DNA of 45,614 nt from Candidatus Bathyarchaeota archaeon (lineage in GTDB: Archaea > Thermoproteota > Bathyarchaeia > Bathyarchaeales > Bathyarchaeaceae), in contig CAVOMX010000020.1 of assembly GCA_963697165.1 (NCBI GenBank), forward strand, positions 1 to 45,614, written 5' to 3'. A program made the translations under genes and the position numbers. Positions 21 to 24,671 of this stretch are shown in pieces (the stretch's first letter is position 1; the number at the start of each line of letters is the position of its first letter). A model generated the notes under the pieces. That model saw nothing but the letters and a program-made list of their open reading frames with translations, did no database searches and was not told the origin of the DNA.

Positions 21-1953
21 ACGGAAACTCAATTAACGATTCCTTCTGCAGAGCTAGTAGATGTAGAAAAGATATTTGTTGATGGAAATAATCCAAATGT
101 GCAATCTAAACGGCAGTTTAAAGCTTTGAAGGAAAGTATCACGCGTTATGGTTTTGTTGTTCCGATTATCACTAACAAGGATTTGCTTGTTGCTGATGGA
201 GAACATAGACTAAAGGCTGCAAAAGAGTTGGGCATGAATCAGGTTAGTGTTGTTAGGTTACCTGTAGATGATGTTGATCGTCGGTTGATTCGTCAGGTTA
301 TGAATAAGATTCGTGGCGAACATGACTTGTTCTTAGATGCAGAAGAATATTACAGGCTAGTTTCTGAGGGTTCTCGAGATTTGCTTAAGGGGTTGTTAAA
401 TGAAAGTGATTTAAGAATTGATAATCTTTTGAGTTTAAGGCAGCCTTTTGAATATAGTGACGTAGAGCTTAATCGAATTGCAGAAAGGTTTCAGACCAGA
501 GTTGAAAGCAACAAACTTGATGCTAGTTGGGAACAGAAGCACCCTAAAGAGCCTCTGTCTTTGAATTGCCATGTGAAATTCTCTACAAAAGCAGAAGTTA
601 CAGAGCGAACTTTAGCTGTTTGTGAAGCTTTCGGTTTAGGTGTTGATGAGTCTAGGCTTTTTGTTGTTTTTGACGATTTCTCTCTTGATTTTAATCGTGG
701 AGACCTAATTTGTATAACTGGAGATTCTGGAGGAGGAAAATCTCTGCTTCTAAATGCGTTTAAGAACTATTTTGGTGAAGAAGCGGTTTGTTTAGATGAG
801 TTAGAGGTAGATCCTGAAGAAACTCTAGTTGAAGGCGTGGGAAATGATGTTACTGAAGCGGTTAAGATTCTTAGTTATTGTGGGTTAAATGATGCTTTTC
901 TTTTTCTTCGCAAATACAAAGAACTAAGTGAGGGACAGAAATATCGGTATAAACTGGCAAAACTGATTGAACAGAAGTGATAAGCGGGTTTGGATTGTTG
1001 ATGAGTTTTGTGCAACCCTTGATAGGGTTATGGCTAAGGTAATTGCTTTTTTGCTTCAAAAAGTTGCTAGAAAGCATGGAAAAACTGTTGTTGTAGCTTC
1101 TACACATACTGATTTTTTGTCTGATTTTCAGCCGGATATTGTTGTTAGGAAGGGCTATGAAAGAGATGTCGAGGTTACTGAATTTAGTAAACGACTTAAA
1201 AAATGTACAATCTACGATAACATTCAGATCAAGAAAGGTGGTATTGAGGATTATCGTAAGCTTAGCAGATTTCATTACAGAACAAAAAATCATGAAGACC
1301 CTGAAGGTCTTCGAGCAAGAGACTGTTTCAAGCTTCTCTTTAACAATGAATTGATTGGGGTGATTGTGTATTCGCATTCTTATCTTAATCTTAAGCCTCG
1401 GAACATGATTTTTGGGAAAAGATATGTTTTTACTCCCGGAGACATTCACACAGCCAATTTAATAAATGAAGAGATTGCTAGAATAAGCAGAGTTGTTATT
1501 CACCCAAAATTTAGGGGCATAGGGTTAGGAGCGTTTTTAGTAAAAGAGACCATGCCAAAAGTAGATGTCAAGGTAATTGAAGCTTTAGCGGTAATGGCAA
1601 GATATAATCCATTTTTTGAGAAAGCTGGAATGGTTAAAGTTGATTACAAGACAAATAGTTACTCAAAAGAAAATGAAATAAAGAATTTTTTAGAATCCCA
1701 CAATTTTGACTTTGACTTTCTGAAATCAAAAAACTATTGTAATAATTTCTTTTTGAGTCTAAATAGTAAAGATAAAAAGAAGTTTGTTGAATATCTCACA
1801 GATTTTGCCCATCAACCCTTCATTAAAACAAAAAAAATAACACCTGATTTACTTACCAAAATGTTCAGTTCAGAACTTACATATCTATATTGGATTAATC
1901 GCTCTCTTTTATATAGTGATACCAAGTTTTTTACTTCAAGTGTAAGTGATTAG
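21..1953 (+). CDS. ParB/Srx-domain + ABC ATPase + GNAT acetyltransferase fusion (COG2401-like), split by one +1 frameshift near 965-970
   Basis: ParB motifs (NPN, PIIT, VADGEHRLKAAKELG); Walker A GDSGGGKS and signature LSEGQKYR in ORF 99-980; Walker B VWIVDEF and H-loop VASTH in ORF 967-1953; GNAT motif A RVVIHPKFRGIGLG. Frame stays open upstream of 99 to position 9; true start uncertain. Confidence 0.85.
1774..1900 (+). repeat. Copy 1 of direct repeat (3' part of the GNAT gene)
   Basis: Aligns without gaps to 3238-3364 and partly to 4063-4104. Confidence 0.95.
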
Positions 1954-2479: not shown

Positions 2480-3238
2480 ATGTCAGTTGAATCACTTCAT
2501 GAAGCTTTTAACCAAAACTGGGAACATCTTCGACATCAAGAAATCCAGCGACAACATCAACTATACGTGTATATCTTACTTTTTTCTGCTGCTTTAACTT
2601 TTATGCTTAGCGATTATGTTGCGTTGCATTTGACGTTACAGCAGTTTTGGCCTGTTTTTTTGTTTTTGTCTATTTATTCTTTTATTGTGAGTTCAAGTGT
2701 TGCGAAATGGAACCTAGAATTTAAAAATTTCTTAAAAAATATTCAATGGATCTCAGAAAAACTCGAATTAATTTGGACTATTTCAACCAAAAGAGTTGAT
2801 GAAGTCAACAACCCGAATCTAATTTGTGATAACAAAGAATTATTACTCGATGATTCAATGGCCCAAGGTTATGTAGGTTTAGCATTACCTCTACAAAAAA
2901 GGGTTAATCGAAATTTTGAGAATATCCTTGATGTAATTCTATTAGGAACAACGGCTGCTTTTGTTTCTGGATTAATTATCTACGTTAGCAGTTCAATATT
3001 TTCATTAAATACTATAGCCGTTTCAGGGTTTACTTTCCCATTTCGGTTATTATCATATCCTGTAGGATTATGCATTTCTGCTGTTGTAACTTTTATGAAC
3101 AGAAAAACTAGAAGTAATATGAGAGACAACACTGATAAACTGCTTGATGTTCGAGAACCTGACGAAATTACTTTAAGATATAGAAATATCCAACCATTCT
3201 ATCAAGATGCTAAAAAAGAACACAAGTATCATAAGTAA
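2480..3238 (+). CDS. Hypothetical membrane protein with about 4 TM helices
   Basis: 252-aa ORF with two pairs of hydrophobic segments after an N-terminal helix (NWEHLRHQEIQRQH). Confidence 0.75.
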   Translation: MSVESLHEAFNQNWEHLRHQEIQRQHQLYVYILLFSAALTFMLSDYVALHLTLQQFWPVFLFLSIYSFIVSSSVAKWNLEFKNFLKNIQWISEKLELIWTISTKRVDEVNNPNLICDNKELLLDDSMAQGYVGLALPLQKRVNRNFENILDVILLGTTAAFVSGLIIYVSSSIFSLNTIAVSGFTFPFRLLSYPVGLCISAVVTFMNRKTRSNMRDNTDKLLDVREPDEITLRYRNIQPFYQDAKKEHKYHK

Positions 3239-3378
3239 AAAAGAAGTTTGTTGAATATCTCACTGATTTTGCTCATCAACCCTTCATCAAAACGAAGAAA
3301 GTAGCACCTGATTTGCTTACCAAAATGTTTAGCACAAAGGGAAAATACCGTTACTGGATCAATCCCAGTTGCTGCTAA
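3238..3378 (+). pseudogene. Orphan 3' end of a GNAT-gene allele (repeat copy 2)
   Basis: Translates KKKFVEYLTDFAHQPFIKTKKVAPDLLTKMFSTKGKYRYWINPSCC*; no start codon at the 5' end; 10 differences in the first 96 nt versus 1774-1869, 8 of them synonymous. Confidence 0.92.
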
Positions 3379-3444
3379 TTATTCACCTAATTGTCTATGC
3401 TATATGCTATTTTATTGCCTTTTGAAGATGTTTTTTTGATTGTT

Positions 3445-4062: not shown

Positions 4063-4110
4063 AAAAAGTTCAGTTCAGAACCAGCATACCTTTTTTCTGT
4101 TAAGAGTTAA
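4063..4110 (+). repeat. Short third remnant of the GNAT-gene 3' end (repeat copy 3)
   Basis: aaaaagttcagttcagaaccagcatacctt.. = KKFSSEPAYLFSVKS* versus KMFSSELTYLYWIN at 1858-1899; exact core gttcagttcagaac. Confidence 0.7.
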
Positions 4111-4257
4111 ATTTTAGACCCCAAACCCAACAGCACTCTCCTGCACGTTAACTCTCTCTTCTTCCTACTCTCCCCTACTCTCCATCTAACCCTCTCTCTA
4201 AAAACAAGAGATAAAAACTCCACCAAGCAAGAAGGAACATGCGAATAGGGACCTAAA

Positions 4258-5115
4258 TTACCAATCAACCATGGATTTAGAGACGTGAAGTTTCATCTTT
4301 TTGAGAGTCATGTTTTCAGTGGAATGGGTTGGAAACATTGTAAGACTGTTCAAAAAGTGCTGAGGAACAGTAACAGGTTCCGTTAGCTCAAGGTTTTCAA
4401 TTTGAATACTACGATCGACTTATTTCACGAAATAGCTCTGAAAAGTTGTGAGTAATGATGTTCAACAAAATCTCTTGTCGACCAGAAATTCTTTGAATTA
4501 ATTTTAAGCTTTTTTTGTTCTTCACCATTTAAAGAGATAGTTCGAGGAATGGTAGGTATTCCAACCTCACTTTTTCCATGAACAGAGAGTGATTCAATTG
4601 CTTTGATATGAATCCATTCATCTCTTATCCCTTGAACTCTACAAACCAAGTTTCAAGTTTCTTGATTTTGTGTTTAAGATACACATCTTTTTGAGATACC
4701 GACTGCCTGAATCCAAGTTTCTTAAAATCTCTGTCTCCACCTTTCTGTTCTAAACCAAGCAAATCAGTCAGAAAAACTGCCATTGAATCTAATGCAGATT
4801 TTGTGTGAATTAGACAATCGGTTACACACAACGAATGCGCAGTTTGCCTCAGTGGGTCAAGCACAAAACTATTAGGCTCGACTGCCTTTACTAATTCATC
4901 CTCCAAATGGATAGCTTTAAGTCCCATCAACTTAACCCACTGAATCTTACGAAGACTAAACCTTAATGACTCATACATCTTAGCCTTCCCTTTTTTTCAA
5001 CAATCAGCCCTAGCATAGCAAGTTTAAACGGCTTGTATTTAGGAAGGAACTGGGGCAATATTTCTCTAAAGAACAGACCACCTTCCATCTTTTCGGGAAA
5101 ATTTGGAAGACTCAT
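4258..5115 (-). pseudogene. HEPN-type (Cthe_2314-like) putative ribonuclease, interrupted by about 4 indels
   Basis: ATG at 5115 with GGTGA RBS; joined frames give ~285 aa MSLPNFPEK...KSALDSMAVFL...IRDEWIH...KSMVDW*; R-x4-H motif RDEWIH. Confidence 0.6.
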
Positions 5116-5181
5116 GACTCACCATTGAAATTTGATTATGTTTTTAGTAATTAAAGCATTTTGTAGTCGTTCACAAGGCTA

Positions 5182-5517
5182 TTACGTAATTCCGATTCTA
5201 GGTCTCCATTCTTTTTTCTTTTCGTTTCTGAGATATTTAGCGAATATCCGAGAGCTTCTTCGTTAATCAATGCTTGACTTGTTTGCTCTTTTTCCATGTT
5301 TTATCCTTGGGATCTCAACTTCTTTTTCGAAAAAGGTTTCTAATGCAATCATTAGTTTGCTAGTCAGAAGATTGTTAAGATATTCTCTTTTTCCTTTCTG
5401 GTTCTAGTTCTGTTCTCGGTTTTTACAATGAAATCCCTTAAGCTTAGATTTCTACAATATTCTATCAGAAAATCATCAATTAGACTAACGATATAGTTCC
5501 ATGAAATCACAAACCAT
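5182..5517 (-). pseudogene. cas1: 3' fragment of a cas1-family gene (solo/casposase-like), frameshifted
   Basis: Joined frames read MVCDFMELYRxLIDDFLIEYCRNLSLRDFIVKTENRTR-QKGKREYLNNLLTSKLMIALETFFEKEVEIPRIKHGKR-QTSQALINEEAL-IFAKYLRNEKKKEWRPRIGIT*, matching the Cas1 D-x2-E-x2-R-x2-(I/V)D motif and C-terminal helices. Confidence 0.75.
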
Positions 5518-6146
5518 CCACAAATTCCAAGAATAATATGATGTTTTTTACACGTGTTTGATCTGATTCCCCGAAGGGTTCATTTGAAATTCAATAATGT
5601 AACTATCTTGATTATTCTTCATTTCATTACAAAATTGAAATCCTTTAGGGTATAGATTTCTGACAACTCCAATCTTGTTTTCCTTCTACTTGTATTGTTG
5701 GCTGTCATTCCCATTCAACTTCATTCTTATGCCATGAAAGACTTGCCTGAACATTTATGCTGAAAAGTAACATATTGTGAGGGTTTATTCAGTTTTGGTG
5801 TCCTGCGTTCGGAATCATTATTGAGTTGAATGCAGTTTTAAATGTGGTAAAATCATCATTTATAGTCTCGTTTGGTTCATAAAATGCTGTCCACTTATTT
5901 TCAGGTACAGACATTAATACAATGCTCAATGTATTTTGATCTGTTTTCAGGAATTGAGAGAATACTGTATGCATATTCGTTAACAGTTATATGATTCTAT
6001 GATGACCGCCCTGTTCTTTCGGTGTACCCGTCTTCTTGCTCATCCATGACATTGCTGATTCGGAGATCGTCACTATTTTTATGTGTATAATTTCTTTATA
6101 GGCGAAAGTATCTATTGAATTTTTTTGACAAAAAAATGTGAAAAAA

Positions 6147-7103: not shown

Positions 7104-8258
7104 TTGGTTCAATGTTCTCAATGTAGTTCGCAGAAAACATGGAAGGATGGTATTCGTAAGACAAGTTTTGGCAATATTCAAAGGTATTTGTGTCGTGAAT
7201 GTGGCTTCCGGTTTTCCGTTAATAGTGGCTCCAAATCATTTTATATGGAATCGAGCAAAGGTTCTAGTTACCAAATCGGCGCTATTCCCAAAGCCCATGG
7301 GCAAGTGATAAATTTGGTAGCGATAGAACCGCTTAGAGAAGGGCCAGCGGGAGCCACAACTAAAACATTAGCACCTGAAATAAAGTCAGAACTAGTCAAC
7401 TTCACGTGGTGGATGAAAAAGAACGGCTATGCAAAAACAACAATACACCTAAACACCACAATCCTAAGAATATTAACCGAAAGAGGAGCCCAACTATTCA
7501 ACCACGACAGCATCAAAGAAACCATAGCCAACCAAAACTGGAGCAACACACGAAAACACTCAGCCATAGCCACATACACACTATTCCTAAAAACGCACAA
7601 ACAAACATGGGAACCACCCCTATGCAAAGTCACTAGAAAACTACCCTTCATCCCAAACGAAAAAGAAATAGACAACCTAATCGCTGGATGCGGACCCAAA
7701 CTGGGAACCTTCCTATTACTACTCAAAGAAACCGCAATGAGAAAAGGCGAAGCATTCCGTCTACTATGGAAAGACATCGACCTCGAAAGACGAACAATAA
7801 CCTTAAACGACCCAGAAAAAGGCGGCACACCAAGAATCTTCAAAGCAAGCAACAAACTAATAGCTAGAATAAACACCCTACCACGCAAAAACAAAAGAGT
7901 ATTCGGCAGCACCACCAACAAACAAACCTCATTCTATGACTCCAGAAAACGAATAGCCAGAAAACTACAAAACCCCAGACTACAACAAATCAGCTTCCAC
8001 ACATTCCGCCACTGGAAAGCCACAATGCTCTACCACCAAACCAAAGACATACTATACGTCAAAGAATACCTAGGACACAACAAAATCGAAACAACCCTCC
8101 TCTACATACAAATAGCAAAAACTATCTTCAAAAACCTAGACGACGAATACACCGTAAAAATAGCATCTAACAAAGAAGAAATCAAAGCATTGCTTGAAGT
8201 AGGCTTCGAATACATCTGCGAAAAAGATGAACTTTATTACTTCCGAAAACGCAAGTAA
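7104..8258 (+). CDS. Tyrosine recombinase/integrase with N-terminal zinc ribbon
   Basis: CxxC...QRYLCxxC ribbon; catalytic R (AMRKGE), K (EKGG), HTFRH, LGH, Y (TLLY); GGTGA RBS. Confidence 0.95.
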   Translation: MVQCSQCSSQKTWKDGIRKTSFGNIQRYLCRECGFRFSVNSGSKSFYMESSKGSSYQIGAIPKAHGQVINLVAIEPLREGPAGATTKTLAPEIKSELVNFTWWMKKNGYAKTTIHLNTTILRILTERGAQLFNHDSIKETIANQNWSNTRKHSAIATYTLFLKTHKQTWEPPLCKVTRKLPFIPNEKEIDNLIAGCGPKLGTFLLLLKETAMRKGEAFRLLWKDIDLERRTITLNDPEKGGTPRIFKASNKLIARINTLPRKNKRVFGSTTNKQTSFYDSRKRIARKLQNPRLQQISFHTFRHWKATMLYHQTKDILYVKEYLGHNKIETTLLYIQIAKTIFKNLDDEYTVKIASNKEEIKALLEVGFEYICEKDELYYFRKRK

Positions 8259-8292
8259 CTATACAAACCGAGTGAAAACTGGTGATTATAGA

Positions 8293-9075
8293 GTGAAAAT
8301 TGCGGTTTCTGGAAAAGGCGGAGTTGGTAAAACCCTTGTTTCTGGTACTCTTGCGGGATACTTCGCAAAAAAAGGATTCAAAGTCATGGCTATTGACGCT
8401 GACCCGTCACCTAACCTAGCCTTAACATTGGGAATACCAATTGAGGAGGCAAACAAGATAGTTCCAATTTCCGAAAATGCTGAACTGCTAAACTCGAAGA
8501 CCCGCACAGATTATCCCGGAGTATTCAAACTCCATTTTACGGTGGATGATATAATTGAAGAGAATGGAATGAAATCGCCATATGGCGTAAACTTGCTTGT
8601 TATGGGAACAATCAAATCTGCTGGAGGAGGATGCGCATGCGGAGCTAATGCGGTTATCAGAGAGCTTCTTCGTCACATGATTGTTGAACGGGACGAGATT
8701 GTGGTTGTGGACATGGAAGCTGGCGTGGAACATATGGGAAGGGGAACAGCCAGCCAAGTAGACATTATGCTTATAGTTGTTGATTCTAGCCGAAAGTCTT
8801 TGGAGATTGCCAAAAAACTTTCTGGTTTTGCCCACGAAGCAGGAATCAAGAATGTCTTAATTGTTGGAAATAGGGTTAGAGATCCAGAAGAAAAAGAATT
8901 GATTACCGATTTTACCACAAAGAATGGGCTACAGCTACTTGCTTTGATTCCATACGATGACACGGTAGTAAAGGCAGACAGAGTAGGAGAGGCTCCTCTA
9001 AAGTATGCAGAAACTTCAGAGGGCGTAAAGGCTATTCAGAGCATCGGAGAGCAACTTCTCCAAAATAATACATAA
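8293..9075 (+). CDS. cooC: CooC/AcsF-type nickel-insertion ATPase (CODH/ACS maturation)
   Basis: KIAVSGKGGVGKT, DADP, GGGCAC, DMEAGVEHMGRG; GTG start at 8293 after GGTGA. Confidence 0.88.
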   Translation: MKIAVSGKGGVGKTLVSGTLAGYFAKKGFKVMAIDADPSPNLALTLGIPIEEANKIVPISENAELLNSKTRTDYPGVFKLHFTVDDIIEENGMKSPYGVNLLVMGTIKSAGGGCACGANAVIRELLRHMIVERDEIVVVDMEAGVEHMGRGTASQVDIMLIVVDSSRKSLEIAKKLSGFAHEAGIKNVLIVGNRVRDPEEKELITDFTTKNGLQLLALIPYDDTVVKADRVGEAPLKYAETSEGVKAIQSIGEQLLQNNT

Positions 9076-13201: not shown

Positions 13202-14963
13202 TTAGCCATCTATCTTTTTGAGTTGGCTTCGATACATTTCGACAACTTCTTGGGTGGTTGTTGCATCCTCTGCGGATTTGTCTACTCTATATTTCCCTGT
13301 GAAACGTGGAAACCGTATGGCAAGTCCGCTTTCTTTTCTTATGACATTCATTGCGCATGTATGGATGGGGCTAAGTGTTATCTCAGCTCCTCTAATTTCG
13401 ATGACAACTACTGGTTCAAACCAAACATCCACATCAAGGGTTGAGTCAACACGGGGATGTTTATGGCTTATCTTATGTTTGTTCAGTAGTTTTGGAAGCT
13501 TCTCAAGGTCCACGTCGGTGAATCCAGTTCCAACTTTTGTTACCGTCTCGAAAATGTCCATGTCTGGGTTGTATGCTGCTAGAAGATATGCTCCGTATGT
13601 TCCTGCTCGTTTTCCTCTTCCGTGGAAGGCTCCAATCACTACCAAGTCAACGGTGTCAGTTATTTCGCTTCGATAGTCGCGTTTGTATTTTATCCAGAGC
13701 CAGCCTCTTGCTCCTGCCTGATAAACAGAATCCTGATTAATTGATTTGCACATTATTCCCTCGCTTCCGCTTTCCACTGTCTTCTCAAAGAACAGCTCCA
13801 GCCGCTCCGGGTCTTCTGCAATTATATGTTCTGCTACTTTGACATTGTCTGTTTCTTCGATAATGTTCTCGAGATGTTTATGGCGGACAGGGTAGGGTTG
13901 CAGGGTCAGGTCTTTTCCATCAACGTAGAGAACATCAAACAGGAATAGAGCGATTGGATGCTCTTCCATTGCCTCTTTTATTCCGTATTTTCGTCTGCGG
14001 TGCATTAGCTCCTGAAACGGCTTCATTTCACCTGTTTCTGGGTCAATTGCAACGGCTTCTGCCTCCACAATAGCAGTCTCTAGCCTTAACATGCTTCTGA
14101 ATATACTCGACCCCGTCTGGGTACTGGTCAGTGATGTTTTCTAGACGACGCGAAAAAAGAATAACCTCATCATTCTTCTTGTGGGCTTGTATCCGCTCGC
14201 CGTCATACTTGTATTCTGCCATGCATTTTCCTCCAAGCTTCTCAAGAATCTCAGCAGATGAACTCAATCTTTCAGCAAGCATTGGACGAATTGGCTCCCA
14301 CGGCATCACCTCAAACTTTTTGATTCGCTCAATTCCCTCTTCGGCAACAAGCTTCGCAACTCTACCTAAGTCAGATGAGATGTTATAGGCGCGCTCCAGC
14401 TCTTCACGGGTCTCTTTTCCGCCCCCAAAAGCTACAGCCAACGCATCTAACACAGTCATGTCTGCGATTCCCAGTCGTAGACTACCTGTTACTGTTCGAA
14501 CTATGTACTTTGCCTCGCTTGGAGAAGAATCAGACAAAAGACCCGCCAATAGACCCAACTTCTGGTCCACAGAACCTGAACCGGTGGATTTTGCTATCTT
14601 GTCTAATGTTTCGTAGACTCTCTCAACAGTCAAGGGTGATGAAAAGAAGGTTGATTGTGTTTTCTTTTCCATGAATTTTTGGGTTGTTTCTCCAAGGTCC
14701 CCAGTTTTTTGTATGTCTTCTTCTATGTCTTTTTCGCGGTGACCTGCAGACTTTGCAACTGCGCGTATAGCCAGTTTCTCGGCGATGCCTATTTCTATTC
14801 CAACAAAGTCCGGATACAGTTTTCCCTGCGTCAAATACACAACTCTGTCGATGAGGCTCTTTGGAGTCTCTTTCAAGATTTCGACCAGATAATCGGTCAT
14901 TTCGAGCCGTTTTGTTGTTGCCTCAATCTTTTCGTAAGCATCAGCTATACTGGAATACTTCAA
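13202..14963 (-). CDS. lig: ATP-dependent DNA ligase (one +1 frameshift near 14080)
   Basis: EYKYDGER motif I, SEGIMCK, WIKYKRDY, RFPRF; two ORFs joined by removing one base. Confidence 0.95.
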
Positions 14964-15384: not shown

Positions 15385-16885
15385 CTAATCAATTTTGTGT
15401 GCAGATGTAAGAATATTCAGAACCCCAGCAAGGATGGATACCAATCCAGCAAGAATTGTGATAGCCAGCAGGGAAGGCTGCACAACAAGAAATGACAGCA
15501 GAATCAACGATACTCCTGCACCGAAACAAATTCCTCCAACGGCAACCCGTAAACGATTAAAGTCAACTTCACGCTTCACCATCCTAAGATAATACGTGAC
15601 CAAAACTATAGCCACCATCCCAAGACTGGATAGCAATGCGCTTTCGGCGTTTACGTCCCTTAGAATCACAGGAAATGTAAGCAGCAGAACAGACATTATG
15701 ATTCCAGCAATGGGAGTAAGCGGATAGAGAGGAGCCTTGAAGGGTCTATCTAGCCGCGGTTTCTTTCTTCTGAGTTGAATAAGCGAGAGATTAACCAAAG
15801 CAAAAACCAACAGAGAACCAAAGCTCGCCGCATAACCAAGAAACACCACTGCTCCGCTGACACCAAAGAATATCACAAAAAGCGAGCTAGCAATGATTGC
15901 CACGTAACGTGTTCCAAACCGCTTGTGAGCCTTCTCCAGCACCTTGGGCAAATATCCATCTCTGCTCATTCCTCCAAGAATGCTGGATTGCACAGACATT
16001 GCTGTGCCCACAGACGAGACACTAGCAAACATTCCAGCTAGCGCAAAAAGGATGGCACCAACCGGACCTAGAACCATTGAGGCTGCGAGGTTGAGAAGTG
16101 GAGGGTCTCCAGCAGTTCTCGGCATATCAAAGGGGACAACTCCAACAGCCACGTAAGCAACCGCAAAGTAGACTACAGTCAATAAAATAGTTGTTATCAT
16201 CAAAGCTCTGGGAACATTTTTTCCCGGATTCTTAATCTGCGGAGCCCCAGCCACTAGGGCTCTCATCCCAACAAACATTGGAAAAATATATGCGGTTGTC
16301 GCAAAGAAGACAACTAAACTGTTTGGTGAAGCTTCGGGCACTATATTTTGTGGCGTCAGAGTGTATCCTAGGCTCACGACAAGAAAAATGACGAATATCG
16401 CTAAGAACGCACCCACTATGAGGGTAGTGGCTTCTTCTACTCCTCGAATCGCTAGAAATATGAGAATGACAACTAATCCTACAATCAAAATAGAAACATT
16501 GGCTAAAACAAGATCCTGAATGTGATGGAGCAAAAACCGAAAAGAGCACTCCCAACTGGCTTACGAAAACTACAGCAGCAAGAGCACCACCAAAGACGCT
16601 GGCAAGCCATCTAAGGCATCCAGCCATGAAGGATATGAAGCCTCCGAAGGCAACTTTTGTGTAGGTGTATTCGCCTCCAACTTCTGGGAGGGCTGCGCTG
16701 AGTTCGCTGTAGCTTAACATGGTTACCAGATTTATTATACCACAAAAGAACAGGGCAGATATCATGCTGGGTCCTGCCAAATCAAAGTAAGCATAATTAA
16801 GTAACGCAAAAATCTCGAACCCTATGGCACCGCCTAAACCCATGATTACTGCACTAAAGAGACCAAGTTTTCTTTCAGTAGTCAA
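15385..16885 (-). CDS. APC-family amino acid permease (frameshift near 16520)
   Basis: LGLFSAVIMGLGGAIGFEIF, YSELSAALPEVGGEY, GMSRDGYLP, RPFKAPLYP; many TM helices. Confidence 0.9.
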
Positions 16886-18684: not shown

Positions 18685-18966
18685 ATGTCAACAGTTGTGG
18701 TAAATGTTTCTGAACTTCGAAGCTTTGATGATGATAGCATAAAAGAGTTGTCGGACTTTCTTGAGGGACACATAGAAGCCACTGTGGTTGTCGCAAAAAA
18801 AGAGGTAACCCTAGAGTTTGAGGAAGGAAAAGCAGCATCAAGATCGCGTCTACGAATGCTTCTTCGAAAATTCTTGCACAAAGCAAACTTGAGAGAAGAT
18901 TTTCGGGTTATTTCTGGCGGAGAAAATAGTTACATAATGAAAGAGAAAAAGGAATACTCTGAATAA
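18685..18966 (+). CDS. rpl22e: Ribosomal protein eL22 (L22e)-like
   Basis: SRSRLRMLLRKFLHKANLREDFRVISGGENSYIMK resembles the eL22 C-terminal signature; 93 aa. Confidence 0.7.
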   Translation: MSTVVVNVSELRSFDDDSIKELSDFLEGHIEATVVVAKKEVTLEFEEGKAASRSRLRMLLRKFLHKANLREDFRVISGGENSYIMKEKKEYSE

Positions 18967-22582: not shown

Positions 22583-24671
22583 TCATTTCTCTATGTAGAC
22601 TTGGCTTGCTCCCGACTCTTTCTCGATACGTATCACATGTTCTGCTTTTTCTGCGAAGGATTCATTGTGGGTTACAGCAATTATCTGTTCGATAGACTTC
22701 AATCGGCTGACCGCCTCAGCCAACCGCTCTACGGAGCCGTCTTCGCTTCCCAGACTCTCTGTAGGCTCATCCAAAAGAAGCATGTATAGACCATGACCTG
22801 TTCTCGACTGCATGATAAGCTGCCCAAGACCTATACGGTAGGCGAACGCCAGCAGAGTGACGTTCTCCGCCTGAAAGATTCGCAACTTCCCGCTCGTAGC
22901 CCTCCTCACTAGATACAAACGGAGAATAAGCCTCGTCGATTTTGACATTTAGTGCGGGTCCAACGTCTCCGGTTAGACTGTCTAGTACCTGCTGAACAGT
23001 CATTTGCAGATAGGTAACGAATTCTTTTCGAAGTTTAGGCTGGATGCTCCGGTAGGCAACTCTTATACGGTCTATTATTTCAAGAAGCTTGCTGATGCCT
23101 TCTTTTCGTTCACTCTTCTTTTGAACGTTATCCAACCGTTCTTTTAGGTCATCTAATCTCAACGCAAGATCGGCTTTTCTTTGCTCTAAACTATCCACTT
23201 CATGCTTAGAATTGAGACGATCAGCAAAAGCGTCTTTTTGCAGTTTTCGCGCAGACTCCAGTTCAGTAACATCAAATTTTGATATCTCCTCTTGCGTTTC
23301 ACAAAGCTGCACCTGTAGTCTCTTTGCCTCTTGCTTCGCAGCTTCAAGTTGTGCAGAAAACTTGTTCAATGACTCCCGCTTTTCTGAGACCTGTTTCTTG
23401 AGGTCTTCGATTCGAGGAATAAGTTGCTGCAGATTCGAGACCGCAACATCTACTATCCTATGGTGGCTCTTTAGTTCCTCAAGTTTTGTTTCAAGTTCTG
23501 TTAGTCTTTTTTCGTTGTCAGCATTTTCTTTTTGAAGATTTTCTTTGAGGCTTTTCTTGTAATCGCCGGTGAGTTCTTGAAGACAGCGGGGACACTTGTT
23601 TTCTGTTATTATGCTCGAAATCTTGTTTATGGAAGAATTCATCTCTCTTTTGGTGGCTTCTTGCTCGCCGCCACTAGTTCTTAGTTGCTCCTCTACAGCA
23701 AAAAGATGGACTCTTATGTCCTCAAGAGACGTGTCTGTAGCAAATCCAACTTTCTCTAATGAATCTTGATGAAGCTTCTTTTGTGTCTCCAGTTGTTCAA
23801 TGAGCCGTTCTTGCTCATCAAGGCGTCTCTTATTCACTTCATTCTGGTCTACAAGTTCTCTAGACCTGCTTTTTATGTTGTTGAGGTTTGTTTGAAGCTG
23901 AATCTCCATTCTCTGCAGAGCCTCAGTTGTCTTCCGTAGCTCTTCTAAGCCATCAAGACGGGAGGTCGCCTCATTGAGTCTAGATTCTGCGGTGACAAAT
24001 TTTTCTTTTGCATCTTCGATTTGACAAGTAACGGACGAAAAATCTTCAACTGCCTTGCTGTAGTCGCCCTCAAGTTTTGCGACGCGGATTATGTCAATGT
24101 CCCGTTCGAGAGCATTCTTTTCTCCCTCATATGTTCTCTGGAATAGCTGCAGACCGCTCCATGCAGCTTCGTAGTCTGAAAGCCCAAATAGTTCATCCAG
24201 CTTTTTTTGGCGCTGCCGAGGAGTTGTGTCTAGAAGTTCTTTGAGGTGTTCTTGGCGCACCCAAACAACCTCTCGGAAAATGTTTTTGTCTAATCCAGTC
24301 AGAGCTTTCAGTTCCTCTGATACTGCGTCGTTTTTGTTGCTTGCAATAAGGTTGCCGTCTCGATAAAACTTGAGTTGGTCAATGTCTTGGCTGATGCCAT
24401 TTCCGTGCCTATGAAGCGCTCGTTGAATCTTGTATGTTCTGCCGTTCTGAACAAAAACCGCTGTTACTTTTCCCTCTTCTGCATCTTCCCTGAGGAGATA
24501 GTCGTAGCTTCTGCCTAATGGGTCTCCGAAGAGCACAAAATCGAAAGCATAAAGAACCGTGGACTTTCCCTGTCCCAGACCGCCAACCAGACAGTTGAAT
24601 CCCGCACCAAACGGAACCACTGTTTTGACGTGCGACCTGATGTTCTCCAGCTGCAGAGACTCCAGTTTCAA
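22583..24671 (-). CDS. rad50: Rad50/SbcC ATPase (one +1 frameshift near 22860)
   Basis: Walker A GGLGQGKST, coiled coil, zinc hook CPRC, LSGGER, LLLDEPTESL, AVTH; adjacent to mre11. Confidence 0.93.

Follow-up and report, generated by a model that had tools for sequence, protein, structure and literature searches.

A probable one-ended relic of a small PolB-less casposon nested in a tyrosine-integrase element of a Bathyarchaeota genome

The window analyzed here, a stretch of 45,614 nucleotides that forms the entire contig C20 of a 2-Mb genome (81% complete), contains at positions 4106-5517 what is very probably the right end left over from a small casposon without PolB, of the type proposed as family 5, nested in a tyrosine-integrase element. 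The relic is inert and represents a thinly described, PolB-less casposon variant, and one-ended casposon leftovers of this kind are common in this archaeal group. A preliminary description had interpreted a cas1 remnant in this region as either a casposon relic or a sign that the surrounding integrase-element family carries, or once carried, a stand-alone Cas1. The observation of the remnant is confirmed, and its reading as a casposon relic is borne out by the ends, the target-like motif, and the casposon-type intact relatives; the assignment of Cas1 to the integrase-element family was not supported.

The remnant is the 3′ third of a cas1 pseudogene, for a casposase putatively of the family 5 type, on the minus strand (5517-5182), where the peptide blocks originally joined by hand are indeed present, spread over three frames. 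It matches a DNA profile of the clade at E 7.7e-52 (model nt 710-1028 of 1038) and two protein profiles at iE 2.2e-22 and 6.6e-21, and tblastn with an intact Cas1 from a same-genus genome (345-aa proteins) recovers it at a best E of 9e-15. As had been proposed, only the 3′ end of the gene is left: by the clade profiles the first ~700 nt are missing, and an indel-tolerant DNA profile did not find these 700 nt. PF01867, the model suggested for checking the assignment, missed the remnant and gave a single weak match in its own genome, on another contig; the remnant is detectable by clade-specific profiles and not by Pfam alone. Indels break the frame near 5485, 5405, 5287, and 5253, and an in-frame indel lies near 5213. 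The C-terminal motifs are retained, among them the D-x2-E-x2-R noted at the outset, which corresponds to D241/E244/R247 of intact Cas1 copies. The catalytic E164 and H229 fall in the missing part, and with the catalytic Glu and His gone the remnant cannot be active. In a tree built on the last 345 nt it is a long branch with weak support, not placed beside the elements whose ends are most similar to those of the relic. The last base of its stop codon is at 5182 and the following gene starts at 5115, which agrees with the HEPN-type gene reported 66 bp downstream. An array search of the window and a scan of 50 window ORFs likewise agree with the reported absence of an array, cas2, and PolB; tRNA, Rfam matches, and an excess of promoter or terminator sites were also not found. 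A decayed ORF in the same direction (~5545-6050, minus strand) ends ~30 nt before the remnant, and relatives of it were found neither in the fetched loci nor in a protein search, the latter being weak evidence. Elsewhere, positions 18685-18966 match the ribosomal protein eL22 family (PF01776, E 1.8e-7) in this archaeal genome, and frameshift-split genes, including DNA ligase, amino-acid permease, Rad50-like, and valS genes, occur at 13202-14963, 15385-16885, 22583-24671, and 99-1953, as well as at G000:C11:4360-6813.

The layout of the complete element can be seen in its relatives, for which we used the best 79 of 137 confirmed stretches from a search of species genomes (loci labelled Lnnn). 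Bathyarchaeia or Bathyarchaeota is the source label of 75 of these best 79 of 137, which hold 60 distinct intact cas1 ORFs. E164, H229, and D241 are retained in 59, 60, and 60 of the 60, respectively, and residue 244 is acidic in 59-60. The alignment of intact proteins ends at a W-x-P-R motif, with a tail of roughly 40 aa in two copies. The best solved relative of the clade is 4n06 (E 4.8e-23), and 6opm, which we take to be a casposase structure, matches at E 8e-15. PF01867 matches occur in 22 of 61 related genomes, one class (~140-175 bits) up to three times per genome. Sixteen of the 60 intact loci are bounded by inverted repeats plus a direct repeat, at sizes of 3.9-10 kb; for the other 44 both ends were not called, and only 37 of the 60 had 5 kb on both sides. 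A target duplication of 13 bp is perfect in 14 of the 16 bounded elements, compared with 12 at 11 bp and 6 at 15 bp, a length control limited to those 16 elements because the end caller imposed 13 bp. At asymmetric targets the repeats are direct. The targets are A+T-rich near-palindromes, several of which adjoin the end of an older element.

In the intact layout, cas1 points to the right end with zero to three cargo genes between. The distance from its 3′ end to the right end is 0.07-3.5 kb, with a median near 1 kb, and its 5′ end is 2.5-6.2 kb away from the left end in 15 of 16 elements. PolB was absent from the 62 ORFs of at least 150 aa in the bounded elements (one further ORF was scanned separately) and stands beside cas1 in one of the best 79 of 137 loci. 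Because the family normally lacks PolB, its absence from the relic is not a sign of decay. At locus L038 (9361-12325), an archaeal-type PolB lies directly behind a clade cas1 among restriction genes, and no casposon ends were found within the 20 kb available. A scan of neighbors of the cas1 loci did not find cas2. Two intact elements (L083, 4151-8261; L040, 12857-12944) contain an additional, orphan 3′ end of cas1 together with more cargo, which in L083 consists of a ThaI-type restriction gene and a methylase. Cas1 is the likely mobilizer of these elements.

A primase-like gene of 150-220 aa, in two related subfamilies, accompanies cas1 in 36 of the 45 intact loci with 5 kb upstream, usually near the left end and pointing to it. 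One member reached E 3.6e-5 against PF24387, below the cut-off. For a structure model of the protein (pLDDT 89), the top row in VIA was HP0184, with a middling Z of 7.4 (rmsd 3.1, 101 aligned), and LigD polymerase (Z 7.0; 3.1, 109) and ASFV PrimPol (Z 7.0; 2.9, 110) were also matched; Foldseek with the same model returned no E below 0.001. A DxD motif is nearly invariant in one subfamily, and the other has DxE and no His. The primase-like protein may take the place of PolB.

Between cas1 and the surviving end lies the cargo, a Cthe_2314-like HEPN gene (4258-5115, minus strand) that is complete at 285 codons with three frameshifts and is 68-85% identical to intact 285-aa proteins across all residues. 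Its HEPN label, given in the preliminary description, is supported by relatives that match PF18730 and by the full length of the gene. Among five relatives tested against PF18730, P0047 scored above the cut-off, P0082 just below it, and three did not match, these three being closer to the window gene. The R-x4-H pair (R165 and H170) is conserved in the window copy and in no fewer than 90% of 120 relatives. The one close relative that was fetched (L188, 81% DNA identity) has neither cas1 nor an end nearby, and the HEPN cargo has therefore never been seen inside an intact casposon. In L188 the gene follows a different short orphan ORF, which has no Pfam match and is presumably transposase-like. 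The HEPN piece was not found in 59 same-family genomes with a single query sequence, and an Atlas search with it gave only a lead at 0.85.

Beyond the cargo, a single inward-facing terminal repeat of the CCCCAAACCC type marks the right end (4119-4217). It aligns best with the ends of L048 (score 49 versus a shuffle maximum of 34), a modest likeness to intact ends in a low-complexity sequence. It is followed by a 13-bp near-palindromic, target-like motif (4106-4118), placed as is the 13-bp duplication of the 16 bounded elements and presumably one copy of the target duplication; the 13-mer deviates from the target consensus. This transposon end, spanning 4106-4217, had been overlooked in the preliminary description. 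A partner for the terminal repeat was found neither in the first 12 kb, nor elsewhere in the window, nor among 59 genome sites. Since the left end and the second target copy were not found in the window, the unit cannot be closed.

The same truncated arrangement recurs across the family. Half-profiles of cas1 run on 60 same-family genomes gave 119 rows at 110 loci for the C-half and 19 rows for the N-half, resolving into 16 loci with both halves adjacent, 94 with the C-half only, and 2 with the N-half only, one of which sits at a contig edge. The 94 come from 38 genomes and include at least one CRISPR-type gene and some loci at contig edges. Seventy-seven of them reach the C-terminus and their starts are variable; relic starts span nt 528-971, which rules out breakage at one fixed point inside cas1. 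On their left side the relics often abut a host gene, with 13 of 53 rows lying no more than 20 nt from the stop of a co-directional gene. Among 43 relics with enough flank, sampled as 40 regions from stronger matches plus those already collected rather than as all 94, an inward-facing end lies within 5 kb downstream in 27 and upstream in 2, against a background of 18 in 400 random 5-kb windows of this genome. The order of cas1 3′ part, cargo, and end is repeated on contigs C11 and C25 of this genome. Two relics (L148 and L165) in which a left end has survived, 30-60 bp ahead of the cas1 3′ part, are non-autonomous, cargo-carrying derivatives. The primase-like gene also leaves 3′-anchored pieces, at 15 fragment loci of which 11 reach the C-terminus (36 of 38 rows counted, 2 duplicates dropped), and these represent left-end relics.

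A core-plus-arm end motif occurs 59 times in this genome versus 0-2 times in five shuffles, with no paired repeats, and a stricter pattern is found in 31 of 36 same-family genomes (0-49 per genome) versus 2 of 24 others. We read most of these motifs as solo casposon ends. The motif may alternatively have a host role independent of the elements, although, like the cas1 clade, it is restricted to the family. Solo casposon ends left by decay are described for Methanosarcina mazei in the accessible part of PMC4779613, in far smaller number than the 59 motifs of this genome.

How the window copy lost its left part may be pictured as follows. The Cas1 of an intact casposon would have inserted that casposon into a near-palindrome of 13 bp, rich in A+T and duplicated in the process, inside a tyrosine-integrase element that would itself have integrated at the start of a cooC-like gene. 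Afterwards the casposon would have lost two thirds of cas1 along with its primase-like gene and left end. We infer the mode of this truncation from the recurrent pattern: most likely, the left part was removed by one-sided deletion after insertion, a process that neighboring host genes would limit and that would spare the end and cargo. One-sided deletion is preferred over a cause specific to Cas1 because orphan 3′ ends are also left by primase-like, integrase, and GNAT genes and because the HEPN gene of L188 follows an orphan ORF other than cas1. At L133, the host DNA has seemingly lost ~100 bp on the left side of the target, which counts for deletion; empty-site comparisons (6 cases, across species) were mostly uninformative. 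Recombination between cassettes is a rather unlikely source of the truncation.

An alternative that we regard as unlikely, but as the best of the remaining accounts, is that the relic was born truncated, Cas1 having joined the right end only while copying or repair, perhaps by the primase-like protein of the element, stopped early and left a 5′-truncated copy like those of LINE retroelements. The imbalance of 94 3′-only to 2 5′-only cas1 loci, with 77 of the former complete to the C-terminus, is what such insertion would produce, although the geometry of the element, with the cas1 3′ end near the right end and the 5′ end far from the left, accounts for part of the bias, and the C-half is better conserved than the N-half (69% versus 59%). 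Three relics (C11, L045, and L046) start at the same position of cas1, after an A/C-rich look-alike sequence. Left ends are retained in only 2 of 43 relics, whereas random internal deletion should often spare them, and it is this near-total loss that keeps one-ended insertion under consideration. On the other hand, left-end relics do exist in the form of primase-like gene fragments, a second target copy was not found at left junctions, and integrase and GNAT genes, which are not moved by Cas1, show the same orphan 3′ pattern. We speculate, with little confidence, that insertion proceeds one end at a time, with the element being copied into the target, so that truncated copies serve as one-way cargo cassettes; each would duplicate the 13-bp palindrome beside the new end, itself a preferred target, giving self-seeding repeat sites that could be a natural intermediate towards CRISPR repeats.

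The element in which the relic is nested is unrelated to the casposon. The tyrosine integrase (7104-8258, plus strand; PF00589, E 1.6e-20) is not part of the casposon and ends just upstream of the cooC-like gene. An 18-bp sequence over the start of that gene (8291-8308, plus strand) forms the right boundary of the integrase element and recurs exactly once, at C18:120900-120917, behind genes that precede cooC in three relatives; it is probably the attachment core of one element whose parts now lie on C18 and C20, contigs that would be joined by it. This element has gone into the opening codons of the cooC-like gene, a long-used integration hotspot: of 19 relatives, most have a stub of an integrase 3′ end, of variable length, ahead of that gene; in genome G012 the stub is accompanied by a different cas1 relic (L146, L180). 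At the start of the window lies a ParB-ABC-GNAT gene in two ORFs (99-1953, plus strand). Its relatives adjoin terminase genes in viral contigs, so the integrase element is probably a decayed provirus; the window GNAT ORF used directly as query matched no viral contig, and its L045 relative did. The GNAT gene has left an orphan copy of its 3′ end at 3233-3444 (plus strand), detected as a sequence repeat, and a second, weaker copy at 4063-4116 that runs into the target motif. Orphan 3′ ends accompanied by cargo, a pattern pointed out in the preliminary description, are thus real and general, and true of integrase and GNAT genes here as well. A further GNAT 3′ stub lies at C25:114881-114972 (G000), and two more proviral regions with terminase and ABC-GNAT genes occur at G000:C8:39480-55000 and C9:2152-13088. 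Proviruses seem to be frequent landing places of these casposons.

It is improbable that the tyrosine-integrase element, or the provirus family, has or once had cas1 among its own genes. Such an origin would fit the cas1 3′ relics found behind the ABC-GNAT gene in this window, L045, and L154, all three of them proviral contexts, and two near-identical IMG/VR contigs (L189 and L190) with an intact clade cas1 after tail genes, and a XerC-like recombinase is encoded by one family 1 casposon in the accessible part of PMC6563490. But among 26 viral loci that share the ABC-GNAT gene none carries cas1 (some of these loci being short), an integrase lies within 8 kb in only 4 of the best 79 of 137 loci, at L085 and L089 it falls outside the unit bounded by casposon ends, and none of the 16 bounded elements has an integrase match among the 62 ORFs of at least 150 aa scanned. 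Three end-like motifs separate the tail genes from cas1 in L189, the relics vary in orientation, start, and cargo between proviruses, and the same relic lies between housekeeping genes elsewhere in this genome. With integrases outside the casposon ends and viral ABC-GNAT loci lacking cas1, we conclude that cas1 is very probably not a gene of the integrase element. In L189 (8300-13173), a conserved 105-aa gene and ParB-like genes lie beside the clade cas1, a larger subtype with no primase-like gene in the available part.

Least credible of all is the view that the remnant comes from an ordinary CRISPR cas1, or that assembly errors alone have broken an intact gene: the intact relatives do pass the general cas1 model TIGR00287, and 65 housekeeping genes show 23 frame breaks in 85 kb (about 0.27 per kb), but four breaks in 325 nt far exceed that rate, sequencing errors cannot account for the missing 700 nt, CRISPR-type cas1 ORFs (L002-L010, L024) do not match here at E 1e-4, and, one coding repeat aside, arrays were absent near the 60 intact copies but present at 4 of 6 control loci. 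An array-like signal in L060 proved to be a 66-bp coding repeat.

The single copy at 4106-5517 has no function, and its importance lies in the family and the relic pattern to which it belongs. Casposons have been regarded as invariably containing PolB (PMC6452270), yet here Cas1-type insertion has occurred recently without it, and for this reason the family matters. The relics show that activity of these elements has been high within one archaeal family, into which they have carried defense-type genes, and the relics also call for caution in annotation, since short cas1 matches in these genomes are not broken CRISPR loci. Because both the end and the 13-bp target are defined, short substrates suffice for testing integration in vitro.

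A search of freely readable papers found none on Bathyarchaeia casposons, their target, or such relics, and the accessible part of PMC13343696 does not treat these elements. CRISPR-associated Cas1 has its fold family and catalytic residues in common with the clade but differs in its setting, since the clade has its own ends and target duplication and stands without array, cas2, or other cas genes; an array search found no CRISPR array in the window or the genome. The inactive Cas1-solo group 1 is ruled out by the conserved catalytic residues of the intact copies. The resemblance to casposons is closer. In the accessible parts of the accounts of families 1-4 (PMC4046053, PMC4779613, PMC6563490), a stand-alone Cas1 is likewise the only recombinase, with terminal inverted repeats, target duplication, tandem target reuse, and defense-type cargo including HEPN, and solo ends from decay and cohabitation with tyrosine-recombinase elements are shared as well (PMC4779613); the ends, target duplication, and tandem reuse are also alike in what is accessible of PMC10359463. 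PolB, however, is part of the definition of families 1-4 in the text available of PMC4046053, whereas the elements here lack it, are smaller, and carry a primase-like gene. They also target an A+T-rich near-palindrome of 13 bp that is used at many intergenic sites, rather than at one to three loci, and their solo ends number dozens in each genome, unlike families 1-4 as far as those sources extend. The nearest counterpart is family 5, proposed from hot-spring metagenomes (Salgado et al. 2022, PMC9755687) and called non-self-replicative by its authors for lack of PolB. The accessible part of that account gives six sequences and no host class, target duplication, primase-like gene, or relics, and the copy here, a dead one-ended piece, differs from the sequences it describes. 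Family 5 and the clade here nevertheless share, within that same text, a Cas1 of ~345 aa without a C-terminal HTH and with catalytic residues retained, the absence of PolB in most elements, and terminal repeats. By eye, the family 5 proteins Cas1_938, 1200, 1219, and 1269, as given there, also share the relic motifs SLVCDF.E.YR and PRIK.G..Q..E.LI.EEA..LAK.LR.E...W.PR, a likeness suggesting that our clade corresponds to the proposed family 5 casposases.
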